Source: Nitrospirota bacterium
GTDB lineage: Bacteria > Nitrospirota > Thermodesulfovibrionia > Thermodesulfovibrionales > Dissulfurispiraceae
Length of the DNA: 55,234 nucleotides
NCBI GenBank assembly: GCA_040754455.1
Contig: JBFMCP010000021.1
Coordinates: 1 to 55,234 of the forward strand
Direction of reading: 5' to 3'
Under the pieces are notes generated by a model that did no database searches, was not told the DNA's origin, and saw only the letters and a program-made list of their open reading frames with translations. The position numbers were made by a program, and so were the translations under genes. This document shows, piece by piece, positions 2,250-55,234 of the stretch. Within the stretch, counting starts at the first letter, position 1. Each line of letters opens with the position of its first letter.

Positions 2250-4010
2250 ATGAAATCAATACGAATTGCCTTGTGTCAGATAAACCCCACGGTGGGCGAT
2301 CTGGCGGGGAATGCAGCAAAGATCATACGGTATATCGAGGAATCGACCAGGTATTGCCCTGATATCATTGTCTTTCCTGAACTTGCCCTCACCGGCTATC
2401 CACCTGAAGACCTTCTGCTCAAACCGCAGTTCATCGAGGATAATCTCGATGCCTTGAAAGAAATCCAGGAGCAGGTTGGTGATGCCGTGGTGATTGTCGG
2501 GTTTGTCGACAAAAGGGATGATATCCACAATGCCGCTGCACTTCTGCATAAAAAGAAAATCGTTGATGTGTACCACAAGATGCACCTGCCCAACTACGGT
2601 GTTTTTGACGAATACCGCTATTTCCAGTCAGGGACGCGCGCTCCCGTTTATCAGACGGGAAATGTTACGTTCGGCTTCAATATCTGCGAGGATATCTGGT
2701 ATCCCGAGGGGCCGGTTGCTGTCCAGGCGCTGACCGGGGCGGAAGTGGTTATCAATATCAACGCCTCTCCCTATAACATCGGAAAGCCGGCATTCAGGGA
2801 GCGGATGATCGCAACCAGGGCTTCTGATAACAGCGTCATCGTCGCCTATCTGAATACGGTGGGAGGACAGGACGAATTGGTGTTCGACGGGCAGAGCTTT
2901 GTTGCAGACCAGAACGGAACTATTCTCGCCAAAGGCAAGGCCTTTGAGGAGGACCTGATCGTTGTGGATCTCGATCTTGAAGCGGTATTCATGAGACGGC
3001 TTCATGACCCCCGCAGACGGCAGCAGGTGAGGGCGCTGCCGCAATCGATGATCGAAAGGATAACGATAGAGCGGGATATGAAAGCGCCTGATGTAAAGAG
3101 GCCGGAGTGTCCCGCCCGTTTCAGGATTCCTCTTCCTTCACCATCTTCTTACGAGGTTGAGGAAGAAGTCTATCATGCCCTCGTGCTCGGCACAAGGGAC
3201 TATGTCCATAAGAACGGGTTCGGAAAGGTCTGTATCGGCCTGAGCGGCGGCATCGATTCCTCCATCGTCGCAACTATTGCGGTTGATGCCATTGGCAAGG
3301 AAAATGTCACCGGGGTCTTCATGCCTTCACCCTATACATCCCAGGCGAGCAGGGAGGATGTGCAGGAGCTCGCACAGCACCTCGGCATCAGGGTGATCGA
3401 GGTTCCTATTACGCCCGCCTTTGATGCCTATCTGGAGATGCTGAAGCCGGAATTCAAGGATCTGAAGCCCAACGAGACGGAGGAAAATATCCAGGCACGC
3501 ATCAGGGGAAACATTCTGATGGCCTTTTCGAATAAATTCGGCTGGCTTGTCCTGACTACGGGAAACAAATCGGAGATGAGTGTGGGGTATGCGACACTCT
3601 ACGGGGACATGGCGGGCGGGTTTGCCGTCATCAAGGATGTACCGAAAGTCCTGGTATACCGCATCTCCCGGTGGAAGAATCAAAAAGAGGGAAGGAATAT
3701 AATTCCCGAGAGGGTCCTCATAAAAGAGCCGACCGCCGAGTTGAGGCCTGGCCAGAAGGACACTGATACGCTGCCGCCCTATGATGTGCTCGATCCGATT
3801 CTCAAAGCCTACATCGAGGAAGACAAGAGCTTCGGTGAGATCGTCGAGCTCAACCCCGACTTCAGTGACGAGCGCATCAAGAGGGTGATCAGAATGGTCG
3901 ACACCAGCGAGTACAAGCGGAGGCAATCACCGCCCGGCATAAAGATCACCCCCCGCGCCTTCGGCAGGGACAGGAGATTTCCTATAACCAATAAGTATAA
4001 GAGCTACTGA
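2250..4010 (+). CDS. nadE: Glutamine-dependent NAD+ synthetase
   Basis: Nitrilase-like N-terminal domain (FPEL, YHK, NICEDIW) plus synthetase domain (GLSGGIDS, ENIQARIRG, TGNKSE, SEYKRRQ). Confidence 0.95.
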   Translation: MKSIRIALCQINPTVGDLAGNAAKIIRYIEESTRYCPDIIVFPELALTGYPPEDLLLKPQFIEDNLDALKEIQEQVGDAVVIVGFVDKRDDIHNAAALLHKKKIVDVYHKMHLPNYGVFDEYRYFQSGTRAPVYQTGNVTFGFNICEDIWYPEGPVAVQALTGAEVVININASPYNIGKPAFRERMIATRASDNSVIVAYLNTVGGQDELVFDGQSFVADQNGTILAKGKAFEEDLIVVDLDLEAVFMRRLHDPRRRQQVRALPQSMIERITIERDMKAPDVKRPECPARFRIPLPSPSSYEVEEEVYHALVLGTRDYVHKNGFGKVCIGLSGGIDSSIVATIAVDAIGKENVTGVFMPSPYTSQASREDVQELAQHLGIRVIEVPITPAFDAYLEMLKPEFKDLKPNETEENIQARIRGNILMAFSNKFGWLVLTTGNKSEMSVGYATLYGDMAGGFAVIKDVPKVLVYRISRWKNQKEGRNIIPERVLIKEPTAELRPGQKDTDTLPPYDVLDPILKAYIEEDKSFGEIVELNPDFSDERIKRVIRMVDTSEYKRRQSPPGIKITPRAFGRDRRFPITNKYKSY

Positions 4011-4070
4011 CAACGTTTAAAAGCAAGAAGTAAGAGGTATAGGAAGTAGAAAGCGCGAGACAGAAGACAA

Positions 4071-4400
4071 ATGATACAAAACAGAACACAGAGCACAGAG
4101 AGAAGAAATCCGGCCAGAAGAGCAAAAGTATTGCTCTCTTTTGCTCTGATCCTGTCGTTTATGTTCACTGTTTCGATTCCTGCCGGCGCTGTTGAAACGA
4201 AGGCCCCTGCATTGCAGTTCAGCAAGAACCCGCAGATACAGCAGATAAAGCCGAAAAAGCCGGTGCGGATAAAGCTGCATCGCACCGCCAAAGGCGAGTA
4301 TCAATGGGACATTACCGGTGATAATGCGGACGATATTGTCAGGGCCGATGAACGTCTGAGGAAATTGCTGATTAAGCCGGAAGTGAGGAGTGAAAAGTAA
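4071..4400 (+). CDS. Hypothetical exported protein
   Basis: Hydrophobic signal-like segment followed by a small basic domain (IKLHRTAKGEYQWDITG). Start uncertain. Confidence 0.55.
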   Translation: MIQNRTQSTERRNPARRAKVLLSFALILSFMFTVSIPAGAVETKAPALQFSKNPQIQQIKPKKPVRIKLHRTAKGEYQWDITGDNADDIVRADERLRKLLIKPEVRSEK

Positions 4401-46236: not shown

Positions 46237-46659
46237 CTACTTCTCTCTTCCCTTTACGAACATCTCTTTGTAGGGCCACCCCGCAATACCCCCTTCGAGG
46301 ATGTAGAGCCTCTTCTCGGGAATTCCCTTTGACTTTATATACTCATAGGAATTGCTGGCGCCGCTTTTGCCTCTGGGGCATACAACGACCACATCGTCCT
46401 GCGTGGCTCTTATTTTCTCTACAGCCTTGTCGAGCTTCTTCTTCTCCTCTTCTGATTTTGCAGGAAAGGCATTGGTTTCTATGGAATCCTTGAAGTGATG
46501 TTCTTTGAAGTCGTCTGCCAGCTGGATATCAACAATGATGACGGGCCTCTTGGTTTCCATCCACTGCCTGAAGACATCAGGCTTTAAGTAATTGGCAGCA
46601 AAAGCCGAAGAGGTCAATACGAAAACTAACGTTGCAACCATTACGGCATACTTTTTCAT
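46237..46659 (-). CDS. Exported single-domain rhodanese
   Basis: Signal peptide (SAFA), VVCPRGKSGA active loop, ILEGGIAGW. Confidence 0.85.
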   Translation of the reverse strand: MKKYAVMVATLVFVLTSSAFAANYLKPDVFRQWMETKRPVIIVDIQLADDFKEHHFKDSIETNAFPAKSEEEKKKLDKAVEKIRATQDDVVVVCPRGKSGASNSYEYIKSKGIPEKRLYILEGGIAGWPYKEMFVKGREK

Positions 46660-46699
46660 ACGTGGTCTCCTCCTGTGTTTATTTCAAGTCAAAGCCTGG

Positions 46700-47329
46700 T
46701 TAACCGATCCAGACGGTTCTCTTGAAGTCTTTTATTCCCTCGACGATATGGTTTGTCGTGCCGCGATAGCCGACCTTTAATTCTTTTTCGAGATCGTAGT
46801 GCTTGAGGCAGGTGCCGCAAGTGAATATCTCGACACCCATCTTTTCGATCTCTTTCAGAATGGGAATGATCTCCTCATTGGTTGTGGTGAGCTTTACCGC
46901 AGCATTAAGGAAAAATATGGTGTGGGGAATTTCCTTGGTAACCCTCATGGTATCGAAGAATCCCTTCATAAGTATCCTGCCCAGATCTTCCTCTTTGCCC
47001 ATGGTATCCGAGCCGATGATGAGCAGCACATCTTTTTCGGGCTCTGCATATCCGGCAGGTTGCGCAGCGGGCGCGGCCTCTGCTGCACCGGTACCCCCCT
47101 CGACAGGCACTTCACAGGGGTACCCTTTCACGATCTTTATTTTCCAGTAGCCGTTTTCAGGTATCGACTCTGCATAGAAACCGCTCTTCATGGCGAACCT
47201 CGTGACATTCTTTACCGACGCCTCATTATCAATGAGGATATCGACAATGCCTTCGTCTATCTTTGCCAAAGCTTCCTCTGCCATAATGACCGGCTTTGGA
47301 CAGCCGAGACCTCGTGCGTCGACAAGCAT
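46700..47329 (-). CDS. yedF: Selenium-metabolism sulfurtransferase-like protein YedF (TusA + DsrE domains)
   Basis: VDARGLGCPKPV, LGRILMKGF, FFLN..VKLT, CGTCL. GGGAGG precedes ATG 47329. Confidence 0.88.
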   Translation of the reverse strand: MLVDARGLGCPKPVIMAEEALAKIDEGIVDILIDNEASVKNVTRFAMKSGFYAESIPENGYWKIKIVKGYPCEVPVEGGTGAAEAAPAAQPAGYAEPEKDVLLIIGSDTMGKEEDLGRILMKGFFDTMRVTKEIPHTIFFLNAAVKLTTTNEEIIPILKEIEKMGVEIFTCGTCLKHYDLEKELKVGYRGTTNHIVEGIKDFKRTVWIG

Positions 47330-47432
47330 AAGAACCTCCCTTTTGTACACATCTGCGTTTTAAAAAACAGAAAATGCTATGAATGAAATATGACCTAGCT
47401 AAAAGATAACTCTTCGAAATCAGCGTTATCCA

Positions 47433-47478
47433 ATAGTTAGTTTCGATGTGTCGCAACTAACTGATAGGTTGCTCCTAT
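47433..47478 (-). promoter_or_regulatory. Paired LysR-type boxes upstream of yedF
   Basis: ATAG-N7-CGAT (47433-47447) and ATAG-N7-CTAT (47464-47478); near-copy at 54141-54186. Confidence 0.75.
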
Positions 47479-47511
47479 GTGAGGAGAAATGGTCCGGGCA
47501 GCAGGTAGAAT

Positions 47512-48294
47512 CTACTTAAAAAGATCGGCCCATATTTTTACGGCAGTGCTGATGATGATCAAAGCGAGCAGCCGGTTCAGGTATTGCACCTTTGTTCTCT
47601 TGCCCACAAAGCTGCCTAATCGTGCAGCCGGCACAGCTCCGAGGAGGAGAGCGGCAGCCATATGAGAAGGTACCTGGCCAGTGGCGACCTTTCCTACCAG
47701 GCCCGCCGAAGAGGAGAAGAGTCCGACCGCGAGCGTGCTGCCGAGGGCTACCCTGAGGGGAATTTTCAGCACATACAGGAAAATGGGTATGATGATAAAG
47801 GCGCCTCCCTGGCCGACGAGGCCGGTCAGAAAGCCGATAGCAACACCGATAAAGACCGCAGTCGGTTTATGAAAGTGAACCGCCTCTGCTGTCTGCTCAT
47901 CTCTGGAATAACTGCGCGGCATGAGCATCATCACAGCGGCGGCGAGGGCGAGCATCCCGAAAATGAACAGTAGCACTCTATCCGGCACCAGCTTTGAGAG
48001 GAAGGATCCGGTGAGTGACGAGAGAAACAATGAAAGCCCGAAGGTGAGGACAAGAGATTTATTAACAAGACTGTGCTTTTGATAATAGAGCATGGCGGTG
48101 AAGGCAGCGAAGAATCCCTGGACCATGGTTAGTCCTGTAATGCTTTTCACCCCTATCGGGTCGAAGCCGAGGAGCGGCGGCACATAGAGGAGGAGCGGGA
48201 ACATGAGAATGCCTCCGCCTATCCCCAAGAGCCCGGAGAGAAAGCCGACTGTCGAGCCGACGATCAAGAGGAATACATAGAAAGCAGCCGGCAT
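47512..48294 (-). CDS. TauE/SafE (TSUP) family sulfite/oxyanion transporter
   Basis: GFLSGLLGIGGG and GFLTGLVGQGGA repeats; 8 TM helices; coupled to the selD stop (TAATG). Confidence 0.9.
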   Translation of the reverse strand: MPAAFYVFLLIVGSTVGFLSGLLGIGGGILMFPLLLYVPPLLGFDPIGVKSITGLTMVQGFFAAFTAMLYYQKHSLVNKSLVLTFGLSLFLSSLTGSFLSKLVPDRVLLFIFGMLALAAAVMMLMPRSYSRDEQTAEAVHFHKPTAVFIGVAIGFLTGLVGQGGAFIIIPIFLYVLKIPLRVALGSTLAVGLFSSSAGLVGKVATGQVPSHMAAALLLGAVPAARLGSFVGKRTKVQYLNRLLALIIISTAVKIWADLFK

Positions 48295-49340
48295 TACTCC
48301 TCTACAAATATATGTATATTGTCTTTTGTTTCCCCATCAAGGACATCGCCTATATGGGCCGCCAGGATCCCCTCTTTTTGCAAGGCTGTGACAAGCGCTT
48401 CTTTCTTTTGCCGGGGGACAAAGATGAGCAGGCCTCCTGACGTTTGCGCATCATTTATGAGGGCCTGTACGAACCCCGGGATACCCGACGCCCATTTGAC
48501 ATAGGGTGCATAGATTCCTAGATTGCCGAGTGTGCCTCCGGGGATGACATCCTGCTCGGCGAGCCTCAAGGCATCGCTGAAAAACGGTATCCTGCTCGCA
48601 TGGAGTCTGGCCCTGCATTTGCTCGCAGAGAGCACTTCGTTCAGGTGGCCTATCAGTCCGAAGCCGGTGATATCCGTTGCGGTACTTACCCCCACTTCGA
48701 GCATGACTTCGCTTGCCCTCTTGTTTAAGGTCGCCATCGATGCGGTGAACTCTTCTATGGCCGCGTCGCTGCACATCCCGGCCTTAACTCCGGTAGAGAC
48801 AATGCCGGTTCCGATCTTCTTGGTGAGGATAAGGGCATCCCCGGGGCGGGCTTTTGTGTTATCGAGAATCCGGTCGGGATGGATGAGTCCCATGACCGTG
48901 TAGCCGAACTTCGGCTCCTTGTCTCTGATGGTATGTCCGCCGATAATCGAGACTCCTGCCTCGGTCATTTTATCGATGCCACCCTGCATGATTTTTTTCA
49001 GGGAGGGGAAGAACTCGGGCTGGCTTGGAAGCATCGCAATGTTGAGAGCGACGACCGCACGCCCTCCCATGGCCCATACATCCGACAATGAATTGGCGGC
49101 GGAAATTGCACCGTACCAGTACGGATCATCAACAATCGGCGTGAAAAAGTCGGTAGTGAGCACCACAGCGGTGTCATCATTAATGCGATAGACACCGGCG
49201 TCATCGGCATTTGCCGAGCCGACCAGTATATTCTTGTCAGTGAGAGCAGGCAACTGCCCCAGCACGTGGGACAGGTCCGAAGGACTAAACTTCGCCGCTC
49301 AACCGGCGCAGCTCGAAAGCTCCGTCAATTTGATATCCAT
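48294..49340 (-). CDS. selD: Selenophosphate synthetase, selenocysteine-containing (UGA at codon 14, 49299-49301)
   Basis: GGAGG-ATG 49340 gives MDIKLTELSSCAG-UGA-AAKFSPSDLSHVLGQLP, in frame with DDAGVY, TDFFTPIVDDP, ANSLSDV.AMGG, GGHT, TDITGFGL.GHL, DAQTSGGLL. Confidence 0.95.
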
Positions 49341-49975: not shown

Positions 49976-50734
49976 TTACCTCTCCACCGGCATCTTCGCT
50001 TCATTCCATTCTGCGAAGAGCGTTTGATAAATCTGCTTGTAATCCATTTTGACGAGTTTCCGGTATGCTATATAACTGCGGCTACCGGTATTGCAGTAGA
50101 CGATGATCTTTTTCTCTTTGGGAAGTATGTCCTGCGCAGAAGCAAAACGATCTGCAGGAATGTTGACAGCACCGGGAATATGCCCTTCCTTGTATTCCGA
50201 AGCATCCCTGACATCGACAAGAACGTAATCGCCTTTGTTTTGATCGATCAACTTTTTGATATCGGCCGGTTTCAGCTTGGTGGTCTCGATCTTTTTGCCG
50301 TATTCCGGTCCGGCAACGATTGGCAGATTCTTTTCTTCCCAGACCGGGAATCCATCATTGTAGATGGTGATATTCGTATAGCCGATCGCTTCTGCTTTCT
50401 TCGCTGTCCGCTTACTCTTTCCGCACTTCACCCCGTTGCAGTAAAAAACCAGATGTGCATTTTTATCGGCGGGAAGCAGCGAGGTCAGGCTTTCGAAGCT
50501 CTTTTCGGGTATGTTGATTGAGGTGATGATATGTGCTTCCTGGTATTCCTCTTTGGTCCTCGCATCGATAAGCATGAATGCCTTCTTTTCGTCGATCATT
50601 GCTTTGAGTTGCTCTGAGGTGATGGTTTGATAGGTGCTCTCAGCAGCAAAAGACGACCCGATCATGACAAAAATCAAAGACACCAGCGATACTGCTAAAA
50701 GGCCACTTTGAAGCCTGCTCATACGTTTACACAT
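49976..50734 (-). CDS. Exported tandem-domain rhodanese
   Basis: Signal peptide; two domains, each with an active-loop Cys (FYCNGVKCGKS, VYCNTGSRS); DAR..EEY...HI and DVR...EY..GHIPGA. Confidence 0.88.
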   Translation of the reverse strand: MCKRMSRLQSGLLAVSLVSLIFVMIGSSFAAESTYQTITSEQLKAMIDEKKAFMLIDARTKEEYQEAHIITSINIPEKSFESLTSLLPADKNAHLVFYCNGVKCGKSKRTAKKAEAIGYTNITIYNDGFPVWEEKNLPIVAGPEYGKKIETTKLKPADIKKLIDQNKGDYVLVDVRDASEYKEGHIPGAVNIPADRFASAQDILPKEKKIIVYCNTGSRSYIAYRKLVKMDYKQIYQTLFAEWNEAKMPVER

Positions 50735-50742
50735 AGATCCTC

Positions 50743-51435
50743 CTACTTTTTTAATCGATATATCAGTATCACAGGATACCTCTCTTGATCGGGAAGCACA
50801 TCAGCTCTTCCCTGGAAGTGAGAATTCGGTGAAACGAAACGCTTCATTGTTCCTATTGATGGATAGTTCGCATTGCTGGTGATGCCGACCCAGCAGCTTT
50901 CGAGACAGGTGACACAGCCGGTATTTTCTTTTGCAGCAGCAGCCTTATTGCCTCCGAATTTGATCCTGAAACCCTTGCCTGCAGCATCGGATATGAGGTC
51001 GCTCAGCGGCAGTTCCTTATTGAGTCCCGGCCAGGTAGCAGTTACAATGAGTTCGTCACCCTCGACACGTTCGCCGTTGCTCTCCTTGGAGAGATTATCG
51101 CCGGGATTAGCGCCGATCTCGATCAGGGCATTATGGAAGACGAGGTGGTTTGCATAGGTGATGAGTATTGCTTTATCAGCGAACTTTCCATCCTTGGAAA
51201 TAACACCAAAGTGTGTAGTCGGCTTGTGGAGATGCTTTGCATTGAACTCGGCGTAGATCATTACCTGCTTATTCGTCCGATCGATAATAAGAGGGTTTTT
51301 TTTGGTGGGAAGCGGTTCATGAGCATGGAGGCTCAGAGATAGACCGGTAACGGCAAGAGCGAACAGGATTACTAGGAATATGATGAATCCAGAGGCACTG
51401 CTCCTCTTATCGTTACCGAATAGCATGTGACTCAT
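50743..51435 (-). CDS. YdjY-family exported protein
   Basis: Signal/TM segment, T.HFGV...G....KA, IGA.PGDNL, FGGN......NTGCVTCLESC.VGITSN. Confidence 0.7.
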   Translation of the reverse strand: MSHMLFGNDKRSSASGFIIFLVILFALAVTGLSLSLHAHEPLPTKKNPLIIDRTNKQVMIYAEFNAKHLHKPTTHFGVISKDGKFADKAILITYANHLVFHNALIEIGANPGDNLSKESNGERVEGDELIVTATWPGLNKELPLSDLISDAAGKGFRIKFGGNKAAAAKENTGCVTCLESCWVGITSNANYPSIGTMKRFVSPNSHFQGRADVLPDQERYPVILIYRLKK

Positions 51436-51977
51436 AACTCCTTGAACGTTATCTTATAACCAAGATTGAATCCGAACAGGTCCTCGTTCAGCGCCTTCCC
51501 GTCAGCTTCTGCGTAGGGATACATGAAGTAGTTAAGTTTGTCGCCCCTTTGCGCCGGAGCGAGTATCAGATCTCTCCCTGTCTGATAGGCTACCCTGCTT
51601 TCGTCGAGGCCTCCGAAGTAGTACTCGACAAGGTCTTTTTTGAGCGTCTCTTTCCGCTTTACTTTTATTGTGTACGTCAGCGACCGCTCTTTAGCAGGTG
51701 CATTCCATTCGGCGTACAAAGCCATGTTGCCGTTTTCACCTTCTCTGTAGACGCTGCTGCCGGAAAAGTTGCCGGTGACTTTGACATCCTCGACAGTCTG
51801 GTTCTCGTCCGAGACGGGGTAGGGGACCCAGAGTCGCACCTCTTTTGCATCAGCCGGCGCATTCAGGTTGAATTGAATGGTGACCTCGCCTGTCCGCTCT
51901 TTCGCAATCGAAATGTCGGGAATGGTGACTGCAATTACTACTAATACTGCCAAATACAAAAGTCTCATGCTGCGCAT
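51432..51977 (-). CDS. Exported transglutaminase-family-like protein lacking the central catalytic core (possible in-frame deletion)
   Basis: N-terminal VRLWVPYP.SD..Q domain is joined directly to C-terminal EYYFG..D..RV....GRDLIL.P.Q....LNYF.YPYAE.DG; the protein contains no Cys. Confidence 0.6.
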   Translation of the reverse strand: MRSMRLLYLAVLVVIAVTIPDISIAKERTGEVTIQFNLNAPADAKEVRLWVPYPVSDENQTVEDVKVTGNFSGSSVYREGENGNMALYAEWNAPAKERSLTYTIKVKRKETLKKDLVEYYFGGLDESRVAYQTGRDLILAPAQRGDKLNYFMYPYAEADGKALNEDLFGFNLGYKITFKEL

Positions 51978-51995: not shown

Positions 51996-52754
51996 TTATA
52001 CAATGTCTTCTATCAGTGACGAGCCATACAGGGCAGCGCCGATTGCACCTACAGCATCAGGCTGTGGCGGCACGAGCACGCGAATGCCGAGCTTCTCCTG
52101 CAGCAATGCAACGATGCAGAGATTCTTCGCCACCCCTCCCGAAAAAACGATTGCGTCATCATACCCGACACGATGCAGCATACCGGTAAGACGATCGATT
52201 ACTGAGTGATGCACTGCTCTTGCAATATCCCGAACGTCAGTCCCATGATTCTTCAGCGATATGACCTCTGACTCCGCAAATACGGTGCACATGCTGTTGA
52301 TCTTGAATTCGCCTTCTGCCTTGAGTGCTTCTGCGCCGAATTCGGAGAGTGAGAATCCCAGGCTTGAGGCCATAATCTCGAGAAACCTGCCGGTTCCGGC
52401 GGCGCACTTATCATTCATCTGAAAGTTGAGGAGCTTACCGTTTTCATCGAGTGAGATCACTTTCGAATCCTGTCCGCCTACATCAAGTACGGTCCGGCAA
52501 TCGGGAAAGAAATACCGTGCGCCGAGGGCATGTGCCTTGATCTCGGTAATAACCTCTTGTGCGAAATGCTTCTGAGCGAGATGGCGTCCGTACCCGGTTG
52601 CCACGATCTTTTTCGGATGGTACTTTTTGATCATTTCGAGCGACTGACGATGGGGATCGAATCCGCTTTCGGCAATCTGACAGTCCTGCAGCCGCCCTTC
52701 TTCAAGGGCGGCTGCCTTTATGGTACGTGAGCCTAAATCAATACCGACAATCAT
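51996..52754 (-). CDS. ATP-dependent [4Fe-4S] activator (HgdC/BadF-type ASKHA ATPase; DCCP reductase-like)
   Basis: GIDLGSRTIK, ATGYGR, DVGGQDSK, MNDKCAAGTGRFLE, CTVFAESEVIS, GGVA.N. Confidence 0.92.
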   Translation of the reverse strand: MIVGIDLGSRTIKAAALEEGRLQDCQIAESGFDPHRQSLEMIKKYHPKKIVATGYGRHLAQKHFAQEVITEIKAHALGARYFFPDCRTVLDVGGQDSKVISLDENGKLLNFQMNDKCAAGTGRFLEIMASSLGFSLSEFGAEALKAEGEFKINSMCTVFAESEVISLKNHGTDVRDIARAVHHSVIDRLTGMLHRVGYDDAIVFSGGVAKNLCIVALLQEKLGIRVLVPPQPDAVGAIGAALYGSSLIEDIV

Positions 52755-52755
52755 G

Positions 52756-54051
52756 CTATCCTTTTATCTGCTCCAGGAATGCCTCGATCCTGGTCTGGAG
52801 CTGGCCGATATCTTCCGGCGAGTAGTCGGATTCGATGGCAATGAATGGAATGCCTTCCTTCTCGCACATCTCCTTCAGCTTGATGGCTTCAATGTTATAG
52901 GTATGACAGAACTGGAGGCAGTAGTGGACAATGCCCTGTGCCCCAGACTCCTTGTACTCCTTGAATACCTGGTCGATCCTATCGTCATTTGGGGTAAAAC
53001 AAGAGCAGTCTATTTTCATGTAGCGCTCGGTCAGGGCTTCGATCTGTTTATCGAGATCGTTTGCATTTTCATCCATAAGATCTTTGTAATACCGTGTGCC
53101 GATGCAGCTCTCGTCATTGACAACAATACCGCCGGCGTTTTCGACGATGTTGTGAATTTTCCAGTTGGGCATTGCCATCGGCGTACCTGAGACCAGCACG
53201 CGGGGAGCCTTTGCCGGAGCGACAGATATTCCTTTTTTGATCCGTACGTCAAGCTCGTCACAGAGAACATTGACCTTTTCAGCGAACCGTACAGGATTAT
53301 CATAGAACGCGATCTGCTCGATGAGGAGTACATCCTTGCCGCTGATGGGCGAGGGAGTGTGATGCTGGAGCTTGTTCAGCCGCTGCAGCGCCCTGCGCTT
53401 ATTGTTCATTATTTTTATCGCTTCTGAAACAGCCTCTGCGGTAATCGCCTTGCCGGTGACCTTTTCCATCTGAGCTTTGAAATCTTTTACTTCTTCGAGC
53501 CACAATGTCTTATCCCTTTTCCGTTTCATCTGGGGAATTTCCATCACATAGGTCGGCACTTCCCGGTCAAGAAGCTCCCAGGTCTTCTTTTTCGCATCGC
53601 AGGTGGTTTCGCCGTAGACGAAGTCGACCGACTGGAAATAGGGGCAGACCTTTGCGACCTTGAAGCCGTAGGCTGACTTCACCATGGGGCAGATGTTTCT
53701 CGGCAGCACCTTTTCCGCATCGGGAATAGGGCCGGGCGAGCCGCCACAGAGACCGAGGCAGATGCCGCCGGCAGCGATGACGAGCTCTTCAGGAACATAA
53801 ACGCAGAAGGTGCCTACAACAGGGCTTCCCGCTTTTTTCGCATCGAGTATCTCCTTTATACGGCCGCCGTGGATCTCGGAGATGATCCAGTCGAAGTAGT
53901 CCATGGCCTTCGGCCGGTTGTTCTGAAAGAGAAAGGCTTTCTGATACACATCGCCCAGCACGCAGCGCATCTTTTCAAAGCGCTCTACATCCATACCGAG
54001 CTCTTCCCACATGTCCTTATACTGTTTGATTTCGAATGCCGCAGCTTCCAT
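52756..54051 (-). CDS. 2-hydroxyacyl-CoA dehydratase-family protein, double-cubane-cluster (DCCP) type
   Basis: GTFCVYVPEE, GLCGG, NICPMVKS, ETTCDAKKK, DESCIG, DCSCF, YCLQFCHTY, ESDYS...QLQTRIEAF. Single subunit next to its activator. GGAGGA precedes ATG 54051. Confidence 0.8.
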   Translation of the reverse strand: MEAAAFEIKQYKDMWEELGMDVERFEKMRCVLGDVYQKAFLFQNNRPKAMDYFDWIISEIHGGRIKEILDAKKAGSPVVGTFCVYVPEELVIAAGGICLGLCGGSPGPIPDAEKVLPRNICPMVKSAYGFKVAKVCPYFQSVDFVYGETTCDAKKKTWELLDREVPTYVMEIPQMKRKRDKTLWLEEVKDFKAQMEKVTGKAITAEAVSEAIKIMNNKRRALQRLNKLQHHTPSPISGKDVLLIEQIAFYDNPVRFAEKVNVLCDELDVRIKKGISVAPAKAPRVLVSGTPMAMPNWKIHNIVENAGGIVVNDESCIGTRYYKDLMDENANDLDKQIEALTERYMKIDCSCFTPNDDRIDQVFKEYKESGAQGIVHYCLQFCHTYNIEAIKLKEMCEKEGIPFIAIESDYSPEDIGQLQTRIEAFLEQIKG

Positions 54052-54140
54052 ATATCCTCCTCGAATAAGTACAACGTGCACAACAGCTTGACTGTTGCCG
54101 CTGTTCTATAACGATAGCTGCAGAAAAACAGACATTTCCA

Positions 54141-54186
54141 ATTGTTAGTTTCGATGTTTCGCGATTGAATCATAGGGATTTTCTAT
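54141..54186 (-). promoter_or_regulatory. Paired LysR-type boxes upstream of the DCCP operon
   Basis: ATTG-N7-CGAT (54141-54155) and ATAG-N7-CTAT (54172-54186); same 31-bp spacing and shared gttagtttcgatgt core as 47433-47478. Confidence 0.75.
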
Positions 54187-54194
54187 TGAAGGCA

Positions 54195-54289
54195 TGGAGA
54201 GGGATAGTGCGAATCGAACGCACCACAGCCTCATTAGGGCTGTATCGCTGGTTTTGCAGACCAGGCGGGGCACCAGCCCCCTATCCCTC
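54195..54289 (-). tRNA. Non-canonical tRNA-Cys(GCA) with tRNA-Sec-like fold (selC*-like)
   Basis: 95 nt: GAGGGATA/TATCCCTC 8-bp acceptor, GGGGC-TGGT-GCCCC D-arm, CTGGT-CTGCAAA-ACCAG anticodon arm (GCA at 54257-54255), 7-bp variable stem, GTGCG-TTCGATT-CGCAC T-arm, U73, encoded CCA. Confidence 0.92.
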
Positions 54290-54304
54290 AGGAATGATTA
54301 AACC

Positions 54305-54341
54305 ATAGAAAATTGAGATGAGTAAAATAGATAATTACTAT
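54305..54341 (-). promoter_or_regulatory. LysR-type boxes upstream of the tRNA
   Basis: ATAG-N7-CTAT (54327-54341) and ATAG-N7-AGAT (54305-54319); TGgTTTAAT lies 7 nt before the tRNA 5' end. Confidence 0.55.
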
Positions 54342-54355
54342 AAAAGGACCGGGAC

Positions 54356-55234
54356 TTATAGATGTGCTTTGATATGCTCTAAAAAGATATTGTATGTGAG
54401 AGGCAGCGTTCTTTTCTTGTGAGTGACAAGATAAAATTTCCTCTTCATCCGGATATCGGAGACCTTGATCTCTTTCAAGGTCTTAAACTTAAGCTCGTCG
54501 GCAACTGAGAGTTTCGAAAGGATGGAGATACCCAGTCCTTCCTTTACCGCCTGCTTCACCGCATCGGTCGAGCCGAATATCCCGGCGATCTTGAGAGCAT
54601 CGATTGAGATATGCTTATCTTCGAGAATTCGTTCCACTTCCTTACGGGTGCCTGATCCCTCTTCCCTGAAGATGACGGGATAGGTGATGAGCTCGTGCAG
54701 GGGCATAGAGTTTTCTTTAATGAGTGCAGGAAAGGAGACGACAATGAGCTCATCCTCTGTGAGCGGAGTGAAGGTGAGATGTCCGTTGCTCAGTTTCGAA
54801 CCGACGACACCGATGAGCAGGTCGTGCTTCAGCACTTTATCGATGATCTCTTTCGAATCGGCAATGATGATCTTGAAAGCGACGGCAGGATACCGCTTCT
54901 TGAACTCCGCGATGATCCTGGGCATGAGGTACGTCCCGGGAATGGTGCTCGCCCCGACCACCAGATCGCCCGAAATCTCTTTTTTGAATTGGCTGAAGGT
55001 ATCTTTCAGTGTGCTTATTTTCTCAATGATGCCTATGGCATGGTTATAGAGGACCTCAGCCTCTTTCGTAGGGATGATGGTTCTTCCCAGGCGGTCGAAA
55101 AGCTTGCAGTCGAGCTCTTCCTCGAGGGTCTTGATATGGTCGCTTACTGTCGGCTGGGTGAGATAGAGCTCCTCCGAGGCCTTTGAAAAGCTCCTGTTCT
55201 TGTACACTGATACGAACACTCTGAGCTGGTGGAT
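54356..55234 (-). CDS. LysR-family regulator (selenium-metabolism-associated type); N-terminus cut by the window edge
   Basis: IHQLRVF.SV....SFSKASEELYLTQPTVSDHIKTLE, GASTIPGTY.MP, REEGSGTR, GSTDAVKQAV. Confidence 0.9.
   Translation of the reverse strand: MHQLRVFVSVYKNRSFSKASEELYLTQPTVSDHIKTLEEELDCKLFDRLGRTIIPTKEAEVLYNHAIGIIEKISTLKDTFSQFKKEISGDLVVGASTIPGTYLMPRIIAEFKKRYPAVAFKIIIADSKEIIDKVLKHDLLIGVVGSKLSNGHLTFTPLTEDELIVVSFPALIKENSMPLHELITYPVIFREEGSGTRKEVERILEDKHISIDALKIAGIFGSTDAVKQAVKEGLGISILSKLSVADELKFKTLKEIKVSDIRMKRKFYLVTHKKRTLPLTYNIFLEHIKAHL

Follow-up and report, generated by a model that had tools for sequence, protein, structure and literature searches.

A conserved tRNA with a selenocysteine-type body and cysteine identity elements in a Nitrospirota selenium gene cluster, and a regulator-type box over its promoter

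The segment 54195..54289 of the window (i.e. the whole stretch of 55,234 nucleotides of Nitrospirota DNA that was analysed) is a real and conserved extra tRNA gene, which combines the shape of a selenocysteine tRNA with the marks of a cysteine tRNA. Judged by its sequence, it belongs to the selC* tRNA-Cys, a class published in 2017-2018, and among these to the ‘Nitrospirae type’. Its product probably serves as a backup, placing cysteine at UGA codons followed by a SECIS hairpin, through the single ordinary SelB of the genome, when Sec-tRNA is short. The gene and its two identity elements are as follows.

54195..54289, minus strand: selC* (tRNA-ReC) gene of the Nitrospirae type, from ARAGORN, Rfam, fold, covariation and the published type
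54257-54255, minus strand: anticodon GCA, read from the sequence
54198, minus strand: discriminator U73, read from the sequence

The gene is 95 nt long and encodes its own CCA. A tRNAscan-type check, suggested by the initial annotation, gave a tRNA-Cys(GCA) at 54289-54195 on the minus strand with ARAGORN, while the Rfam tRNA-Sec model scored 58.1 bits (gathering threshold 47) and was the sole Rfam match in the window. Together with the parts, these calls bear out the complete cloverleaf described there, with its 8/5 helix, UGGU D-loop, long arm, GCA and U73. The 5′ half comprises an 8-bp acceptor, starting with the pair G1-C72, a 1-nt linker and a 5-bp D-stem closed by the UGGU loop; the 3′ half comprises a 5-bp anticodon stem, a 3-nt linker, a variable stem of 6-7 bp and a 5-bp T-stem. 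From acceptor to D-loop we measured 6 nt, as first reported; the distance is 8 nt in E. coli tRNA-Sec. The fold has a z-score of -4.18, and 0 of 200 shuffles are equally stable. For the window sequence alone, a 9/4 fold (-46.2 kcal/mol) equals the 8/5 fold (-46.1 kcal/mol), but the 9/4 fold was dropped on the strength of the homologues: in favour of 8/5, 44 of 46 rows have G-C as their first T-stem pair, and the linker base is variable.

Covariation was studied in 46 hand-picked Nitrospirota-type homologues of similar length, a few rows of which are misaligned at the 5′ end. In this alignment 91.9% of the cells pair, slid controls pairing at 46-62%, and 21 of the 30 pairs change on both sides; neither value is reached by any of 500 shuffles, a test which kinship among the sequences inflates. 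The anticodon loop, T-loop and CCA of the homologues are kept as in a working tRNA. These changes largely refute a decaying selC duplicate devoid of compensatory changes, which had been named at the outset as a way in which the annotation could fail and which we regard as barely credible. Decay would fit the patchy distribution and the broken copies seen in relatives (L007:1501-1601, where the 5′ acceptor strand is lost, and L186:45-136, where the acceptor end is broken), but all five stems of the window gene are intact and its promoter region is conserved. GCA and U73 recur in 96 distinct homologues among the matches listed, for which the search pattern required both, and GCA is retained in every parsed Nitrospirota copy, where the pattern also permitted UCA. 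A 13-nt stretch with a full 5-bp T-stem is found in 79 of the 96 distinct homologues among the matches listed, the pattern favouring such a T-stem. In contigs of four sequencing runs (X2 is possibly the source and X5 ends before U73), none of the differences listed touches the anticodon or U73, two further differences in each of two runs being counted only; in the contig of run X6, a changed base at 54224 replaces the last U-G of the variable stem by U-U. An assembly error standing in for a true UCA/G73, the other failure foreseen, was thus dropped, since both features recur in homologues and no listed run difference falls there.

Two groups of relatives depart from this picture. Eight loci (L013, L015, L017, L020, L022, L025, L026 and L098, at ∼1500-1650 or 4001-4119) carry giant branched variable regions of 48-61 nt, in which several inner hairpins close with loops of 7 nt that look like anticodon loops or like GG-containing SECIS loops. 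A SECIS built into the variable arm was considered and dropped: the loop in the window lacks GG and most loops are A-rich, despite some GG-containing loops like the SECIS loops of the genome. The second group (L044, L048, L071, L093, L112, L126 and L150) consists of long-arm tRNAs that combine UCA and U73 with an acceptor of 7 bp; of the five such loci with flanks, four sit directly behind an hdrA/mvhD-type gene.

The selC* tRNA-Cys were defined by U73 and GCA or UCA on a Sec-like body, with Nitrospirae among the hosts (Mukai et al., NAR 2017, PMC5389517). In the part of the supplement of that paper considered here, five of the 52 entries counted (three from Thermodesulfovibrio, two metagenomic) are by eye of the unbulged 8/5 form, with the anticodon arm of the window gene. 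One of our loci, L108, 79% identical to the window gene, reads by eye as a published metagenomic entry of the Nitrospirae type, and another, L179, which scores 70 bits with our selC* model, reads by eye as the published T. thiophilus entry (PMC5389517). With this type the window gene shares GCA, U73, the long variable arm, the unbulged 8/5 helix, the same anticodon arm and a host with full selABCD, and, as far as the published entries go, it differs in sequence only. The proposal of a Sec-like body with cysteine identity, akin to selC*, is therefore in line with print. One remark made with it is not: the unbulged 13-bp form is no distinct variant, given the five entries and the 79 of 96 homologues above. 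The 8/4 form is that of the deltaproteobacterial type only (PMC5389517).

The working definition of tRNA-ReC in a review (at least 80 nt, GCA or UCA, U73; PMC13582414, in part) covers the window gene, which also has the Sec-like body with long acceptor and variable arm; as is typical of the class, a canonical tRNA-Sec coexists with selA, selB and selD in this genome. Membership of tRNA-Sec, sense-anticodon forms included, would call for G73, which is found in the genome's own tRNA-Sec, while the window gene has U73. The tRNA-ReC of D. nigrificans (Vargas-Rodriguez et al., RNA Biol 2018, as cited in PMC11415595 and PMC13582414) similarly has GCA and U73 on a Sec-like body. The clostridial type is the one whose function was tested, and its entries in the supplement (PMC5389517) have an extra T-stem base, absent from the window gene. 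The deltaproteobacterial 8/4 selC*, accompanied by selB* and cysS* (PMC5389517), share U73 and the Sec-like body, and an extra selB downstream occurs also in some Nitrospirota; the window gene differs from them in having 13 bp, no A51a bulge, G1-C72 and GCA. It differs as well in its setting, with the gene for a double-cubane-cluster protein (DCCP) downstream, a single selB in the genome and a CysRS-like paralogue on another contig.

A search of GTDB genomes with a sequence pattern gave at least 121 loci, 95 of which passed the stem filters (87 GCA and 8 UCA), the other 26 being dropped as chance or broken matches. Adding 16 further loci to the filtered set brought it to at least 103 GCA sequences, 96 of them distinct. 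Among the matches listed, GCA homologues come from Nitrospirota, Bacillota, Actinomycetota, Chloroflexota, Acidobacteriota and Desulfobacterota. For the order of the window, a 12-mer survey also matched normal tRNA-Cys and was replaced by a selC* model, which gave 67 matches of at least 70 bits in 64 of 121 genomes. All 11 of these that were fetched are GCA/U73; seven matches inspected at 61-64 bits proved to be six tRNA-Sec and one damaged GCA copy. SelA is present in 63 of the 64 genomes. No copy reaches 70 bits in the other 57 genomes of the order, though nearly all use Sec, and selC* is there either dispensable or unassembled. In G133, a genome 96% complete, selC* and selB are present, with no selA found and no tRNA-Sec match; a replacement of the Sec pathway by selC* in this case was not accepted, because the missing selA and tRNA-Sec may share one missing contig.

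In the window, the gene heads a cluster for selenium and sulfur handling, as first noted.

54356..55234, minus strand: LysR regulator associated with selenium metabolism, truncated at its 5′ end by the contig boundary, which may bind the box described below (NF040786, 311 bits, cut-off 250)
52756..54051, minus strand: anaerobic reductase with a double-cubane cluster (DCCP), whose ATG start at 54051 follows a GGAGG site (NF040772, 493 bits)
51996..52754, minus strand: ATP-dependent activase of the BcrAD/BadFG family, partner of DCCP (TIGR00241, PF01869)
49976..50734, minus strand: tandem rhodanese, with Cys (UGC) where two paralogues elsewhere in the genome have UGA (PF00581, alignment of the Sec position)
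48294..49340, minus strand: selD, itself a selenoprotein gene, with a hairpin behind its in-frame UGA at 49301 (TIGR00476)
46237..48294, minus strand: TauE/SafE exporter, yedF and single-domain rhodanese, the rest of the cluster (family matches)

The selenium LysR gene lies upstream of selC*, and the order downstream is DCCP, activase, a 181-aa protein, a YdjY-like protein, rhodanese, ArsR, selD, TauE, yedF, rhodanese and an Fe-S/VTT protein. The 181-aa protein (51432-51977, minus strand) had no family match; by eye it resembles the N-terminal part of a transglutaminase-like family of ∼335 aa, a neighbour of selC* in 6 of 70 loci. These 70 loci, with flanks of up to 4 kb (65 GCA, 5 UCA), made up our neighbour survey, in which only cluster representatives were annotated. 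As raw counts, the recurring neighbours are YedF (17 loci), LysR (14), DCCP (12), activase (9), SelB (6) and YedE (5), and one or more of these, or SelD, accompany selC* in 36 of the 65 GCA loci. In the survey of the order, at least 21 of the 64 genomes have a selenium LysR gene no farther than 1.5 kb from selC*. No single neighbour being constant, selC* appears linked to selenium handling in general and not to one enzyme. This inconstancy weakens the early suggestion of a non-translational carrier of Cys, S or Se for the adjacent enzymes, with the double-cubane gene within 4 kb in 12 of the 70 loci only. Broadened to a Cys or Se carrier for DCCP, YedF and rhodaneses, or to a decoy tying up SelB, such a role is in our opinion unlikely: the gene does sit among genes for Se and S handling and the giant variable regions of some relatives look bulky for the ribosome, but anticodon loop, T-loop and CCA are those of a working tRNA and, in the parts of PMC5389517 and PMC11415595 considered here, homologues were shown to translate.

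A translational role has to be reconciled with the partners present. The genome of the window has a tRNA-Sec (UCA, G73) on contig C31 and a normal tRNA-Cys on contig C29, so that selC* is needed for neither job. It also has one SelA, two SelD and one SelB, whose aminoacyl pocket and SECIS-binding end are intact; a SelB dedicated to selC* was dropped for this genome, no extra copy being found. The genome search advocated in the initial annotation thus yielded the canonical tRNA-Sec and tRNA-Cys and a CysRS-like paralogue, and no extra selB. The paralogue (413 aa; L037:1234-2475, minus strand, contig C14 of G000) lacks the anticodon-binding end and has changed zinc-site residues; orthologues occur in 14 of the 121 genomes, 11 of them with selC*. 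A dedicated CysRS was dropped too, as the paralogue is unlinked and, with this query, 53 of the 64 selC* genomes are without it. Elsewhere (L036:796-2928, plus strand, contig C1 of G000), a serine acetyltransferase, CysE, is fused in frame to CysRS in a protein of 710 aa.

As for targets, the genome has at least 11 in-frame UGA sites with downstream hairpins, in SelD (two), AhpC, formate dehydrogenase (two), DsbC-like proteins (two), rhodaneses (two) and multiheme cytochromes (two); these family names are partly presumed from motifs. The de novo scan for UGA being noisy, sites were chosen by recognisable motifs and then checked by alignment, so that 11 is a lower bound. The two multiheme cytochromes c (G000 C49:11887 and C32:8304, both minus strand) have the motif IPDG-U-P, with a SECIS-like hairpin after the UGA. 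The second Sec-containing selD (C37:23929, plus strand) has another selenium LysR gene (C37:26590-27468, minus strand) at a distance of ∼2.6 kb.

Function has been approached for one clostridial homologue, in E. coli: according to the review passages considered here (PMC11415595, PMC13582414), the GCA tRNA of D. nigrificans depends for its delivery on SelB instead of EF-Tu and reads Sec UGA codons as Cys; both anticodon types, GCA and UCA, put Cys at a Sec UGA with SECIS. The first option of the initial annotation, a Cys-tRNA needing a SelB-like factor, looks right by this analogy, but the reported Cys at Sec UGA codons had been missed. In the same way we infer SelB delivery and Cys at UGA for the Nitrospirae type. 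Ordinary CysRS would charge selC* with cysteine by virtue of GCA, U73 and G1-C72. The 13-bp acceptor-T helix and long variable arm would suit SelB and not EF-Tu, and the single SelB of the genome would thus bind the Cys-tRNA and, held in place by the SECIS hairpin of a selenoprotein mRNA, bring it to the Sec UGA, which GCA would read despite a mispaired wobble base. Cys forms of SelD, the formate dehydrogenases and other selenoproteins would then be made under a shortage of Sec-tRNA. We favour this backup because ordinary Cys and Sec decoding are already covered and SelB is single. Against it counts that GCA is a poor match for UGA, yet is kept in all parsed Nitrospirota copies.

Relatives in which selB follows selC* are informative here. 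Five such genomes were chosen, each with two or three full SelB, and in 5/5 the selC*-adjacent selB is an extra copy, which ties the tRNA to SelB. Six selC*-adjacent SelB split from six canonical ones, including that of the window genome (support 1.0, unrooted tree). Their aminoacyl-pocket segments are unchanged, while the C-terminal RD-x-LGTTRKY-type motif, which we take to bind the SECIS loop, has drifted in 4/4 full-length extra copies; of the other two, one runs off its contig and the second ends after 529 aa. SECIS-dependent delivery fits this drift less well. In the excerpts of PMC4605307 used here, SECIS binding resides on WHD3-4 of SelB, and the 13-bp helix makes the extra arm face domain 3 of that protein. 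Extra selB genes lie directly downstream of selC* in Nitrospirota loci L164, L165, L170 and L171, and also L172 and L173; the 2017 paper, in the text available, names selB* only for Deltaproteobacteria (PMC5389517). Within the order of the window, two SelB copies occur in 3 of the 121 genomes, each with one copy beside selC*.

Both the strictly kept GCA, cognate for UGY, and the drifted motif would suit an auxiliary Cys isoacceptor, which would bring Cys to ordinary UGC/UGU codons through SelB, an extra SelB or EF-Tu and support Cys-rich Fe-S proteins. This is nevertheless an improbable role: a normal tRNA-Cys is present, more than half of the GCA loci (the 36/65 above) are linked to selenium genes, only 3 of the 64 selC* genomes have a second SelB, and the clostridial homologue does not use EF-Tu (PMC11415595, in part).

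Sec could also be placed at Cys codons, either after serylation and conversion by SelA or after mischarging with free Sec by CysRS and selection by SelB. A GCA anticodon on a Sec-type body is found likewise in the tRNA-Sec of Aeromonas salmonicida, the discriminator of which is presumably G73. That tRNA is a carrier of Sec for UGC (PMC11415595, in part), and the Sec-like D-arm, the long arm and the unchanged SelB pocket residues of our case agree with such a use. Unlike it, the window gene has U73, not G73, and coexists with a normal tRNA-Sec, from which it departs by a 5-bp D-stem and an altered variable-arm junction. Moreover, a SECIS-like hairpin follows UGC in 0/3 Cys paralogues of the genome's selenoproteins, three being the number covered. 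The initial option of Sec at UGY therefore found no support, and we hold it to be most unlikely. The region upstream of selC*, and the word before the double-cubane operon, have the following features.

54327..54341, minus strand: inverted repeat ATAG-N7-CTAT (T-N11-A, LysR-type box), directly upstream of the -35 and the best site in the genome
54297..54326, minus strand: putative sigma-70-type promoter, from the sequence and homologues
54326-54321, minus strand: -35-like TTTACT
54319-54305, minus strand: second, weaker box ending in CTAT, inside the 18-nt spacer
ending at 54297, minus strand: extended -10-like TG-n-TTTAAT, 7 nt before G1
54136..54157, minus strand: second box-like word before the double-cubane operon, with a near-exact copy elsewhere

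The T-N11-A pattern is that of a LysR box. In the 110 nt upstream of the listed GCA genes, ATAG-N7-CTAT occurs in 18 of 96 distinct regions (shuffle mean 0.33, maximum 3). With a matrix from 11 other loci, the window site is the best in the 3.3-Mb genome (34.2, the next scoring 14.9), and it is again the best with a shorter matrix, likewise built from other genomes (25.6, the next scoring 17.0). The shorter matrix finds sites in 29 of 95 listed upstream regions, 19 of the 29 lying at -50 to -52 and immediately followed by TTGAC-like hexamers, and none in the other 66; many homologues have TTGAC at the position of the -35. A consensus promoter scan did not list the selC* promoter, and no terminator was found. 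Nor did the shorter matrix point to a wider regulon, its 11 matches genome-wide being no rise above background (8 in the control). The word at 54136..54157 recurs before yedF (47449-47428, 21 of 22 nt the same), where the copy scores 13.4, within background.

Three selenium LysR genes exist in the window genome, the neighbour of selC* and two more, and any of them could be the binder. Their archaeal orthologue HrsM represses Cys isoforms and isogenes at adequate selenium (PMC11097638, PMC5322559, both in part). The position of the weaker box between -35 and -10 suggests repression, and a selenium LysR over the promoter probably keeps selC* off at adequate selenium. A conserved regulator-type site over the selC* promoter adds to the known class, hinting at a gene switched on at selenium scarcity; the text of PMC5389517, as far as available, mentions neither LysR linkage nor a promoter box, nor the extra SelB of Nitrospirota or giant variable arms. 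Our literature search found no paper linking selC* to a LysR, an operator or selenium limitation, but it excluded the 2018 RNA Biol and subscription papers, so that the operator may be in print.

At this point we may only offer the complete switch as a tentative picture, somewhat less than an even bet. A selenium-sensing LysR, the bacterial counterpart of HrsM, would sit on two boxes flanking the -35; loss of selenium would release the tRNA, and the whole UGA selenoproteome would be made in Cys form from the same genes, as opposed to the duplicated Cys isogenes of Methanococcus. In a few lineages the extra SelB, whose SECIS-binding helix has drifted, may act on another or a less strictly defined set of SECIS.

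The in-cell role of the tRNA-ReC class is still called unclear in the review text considered here (PMC13582414). With an operator-like site that is conserved, and a candidate for the regulator, this role can be tested directly in cultured Thermodesulfovibrio. If the backup operates, UGA in selC* genomes may stand for Cys in addition to Sec, with consequences for selenoproteome predictions.
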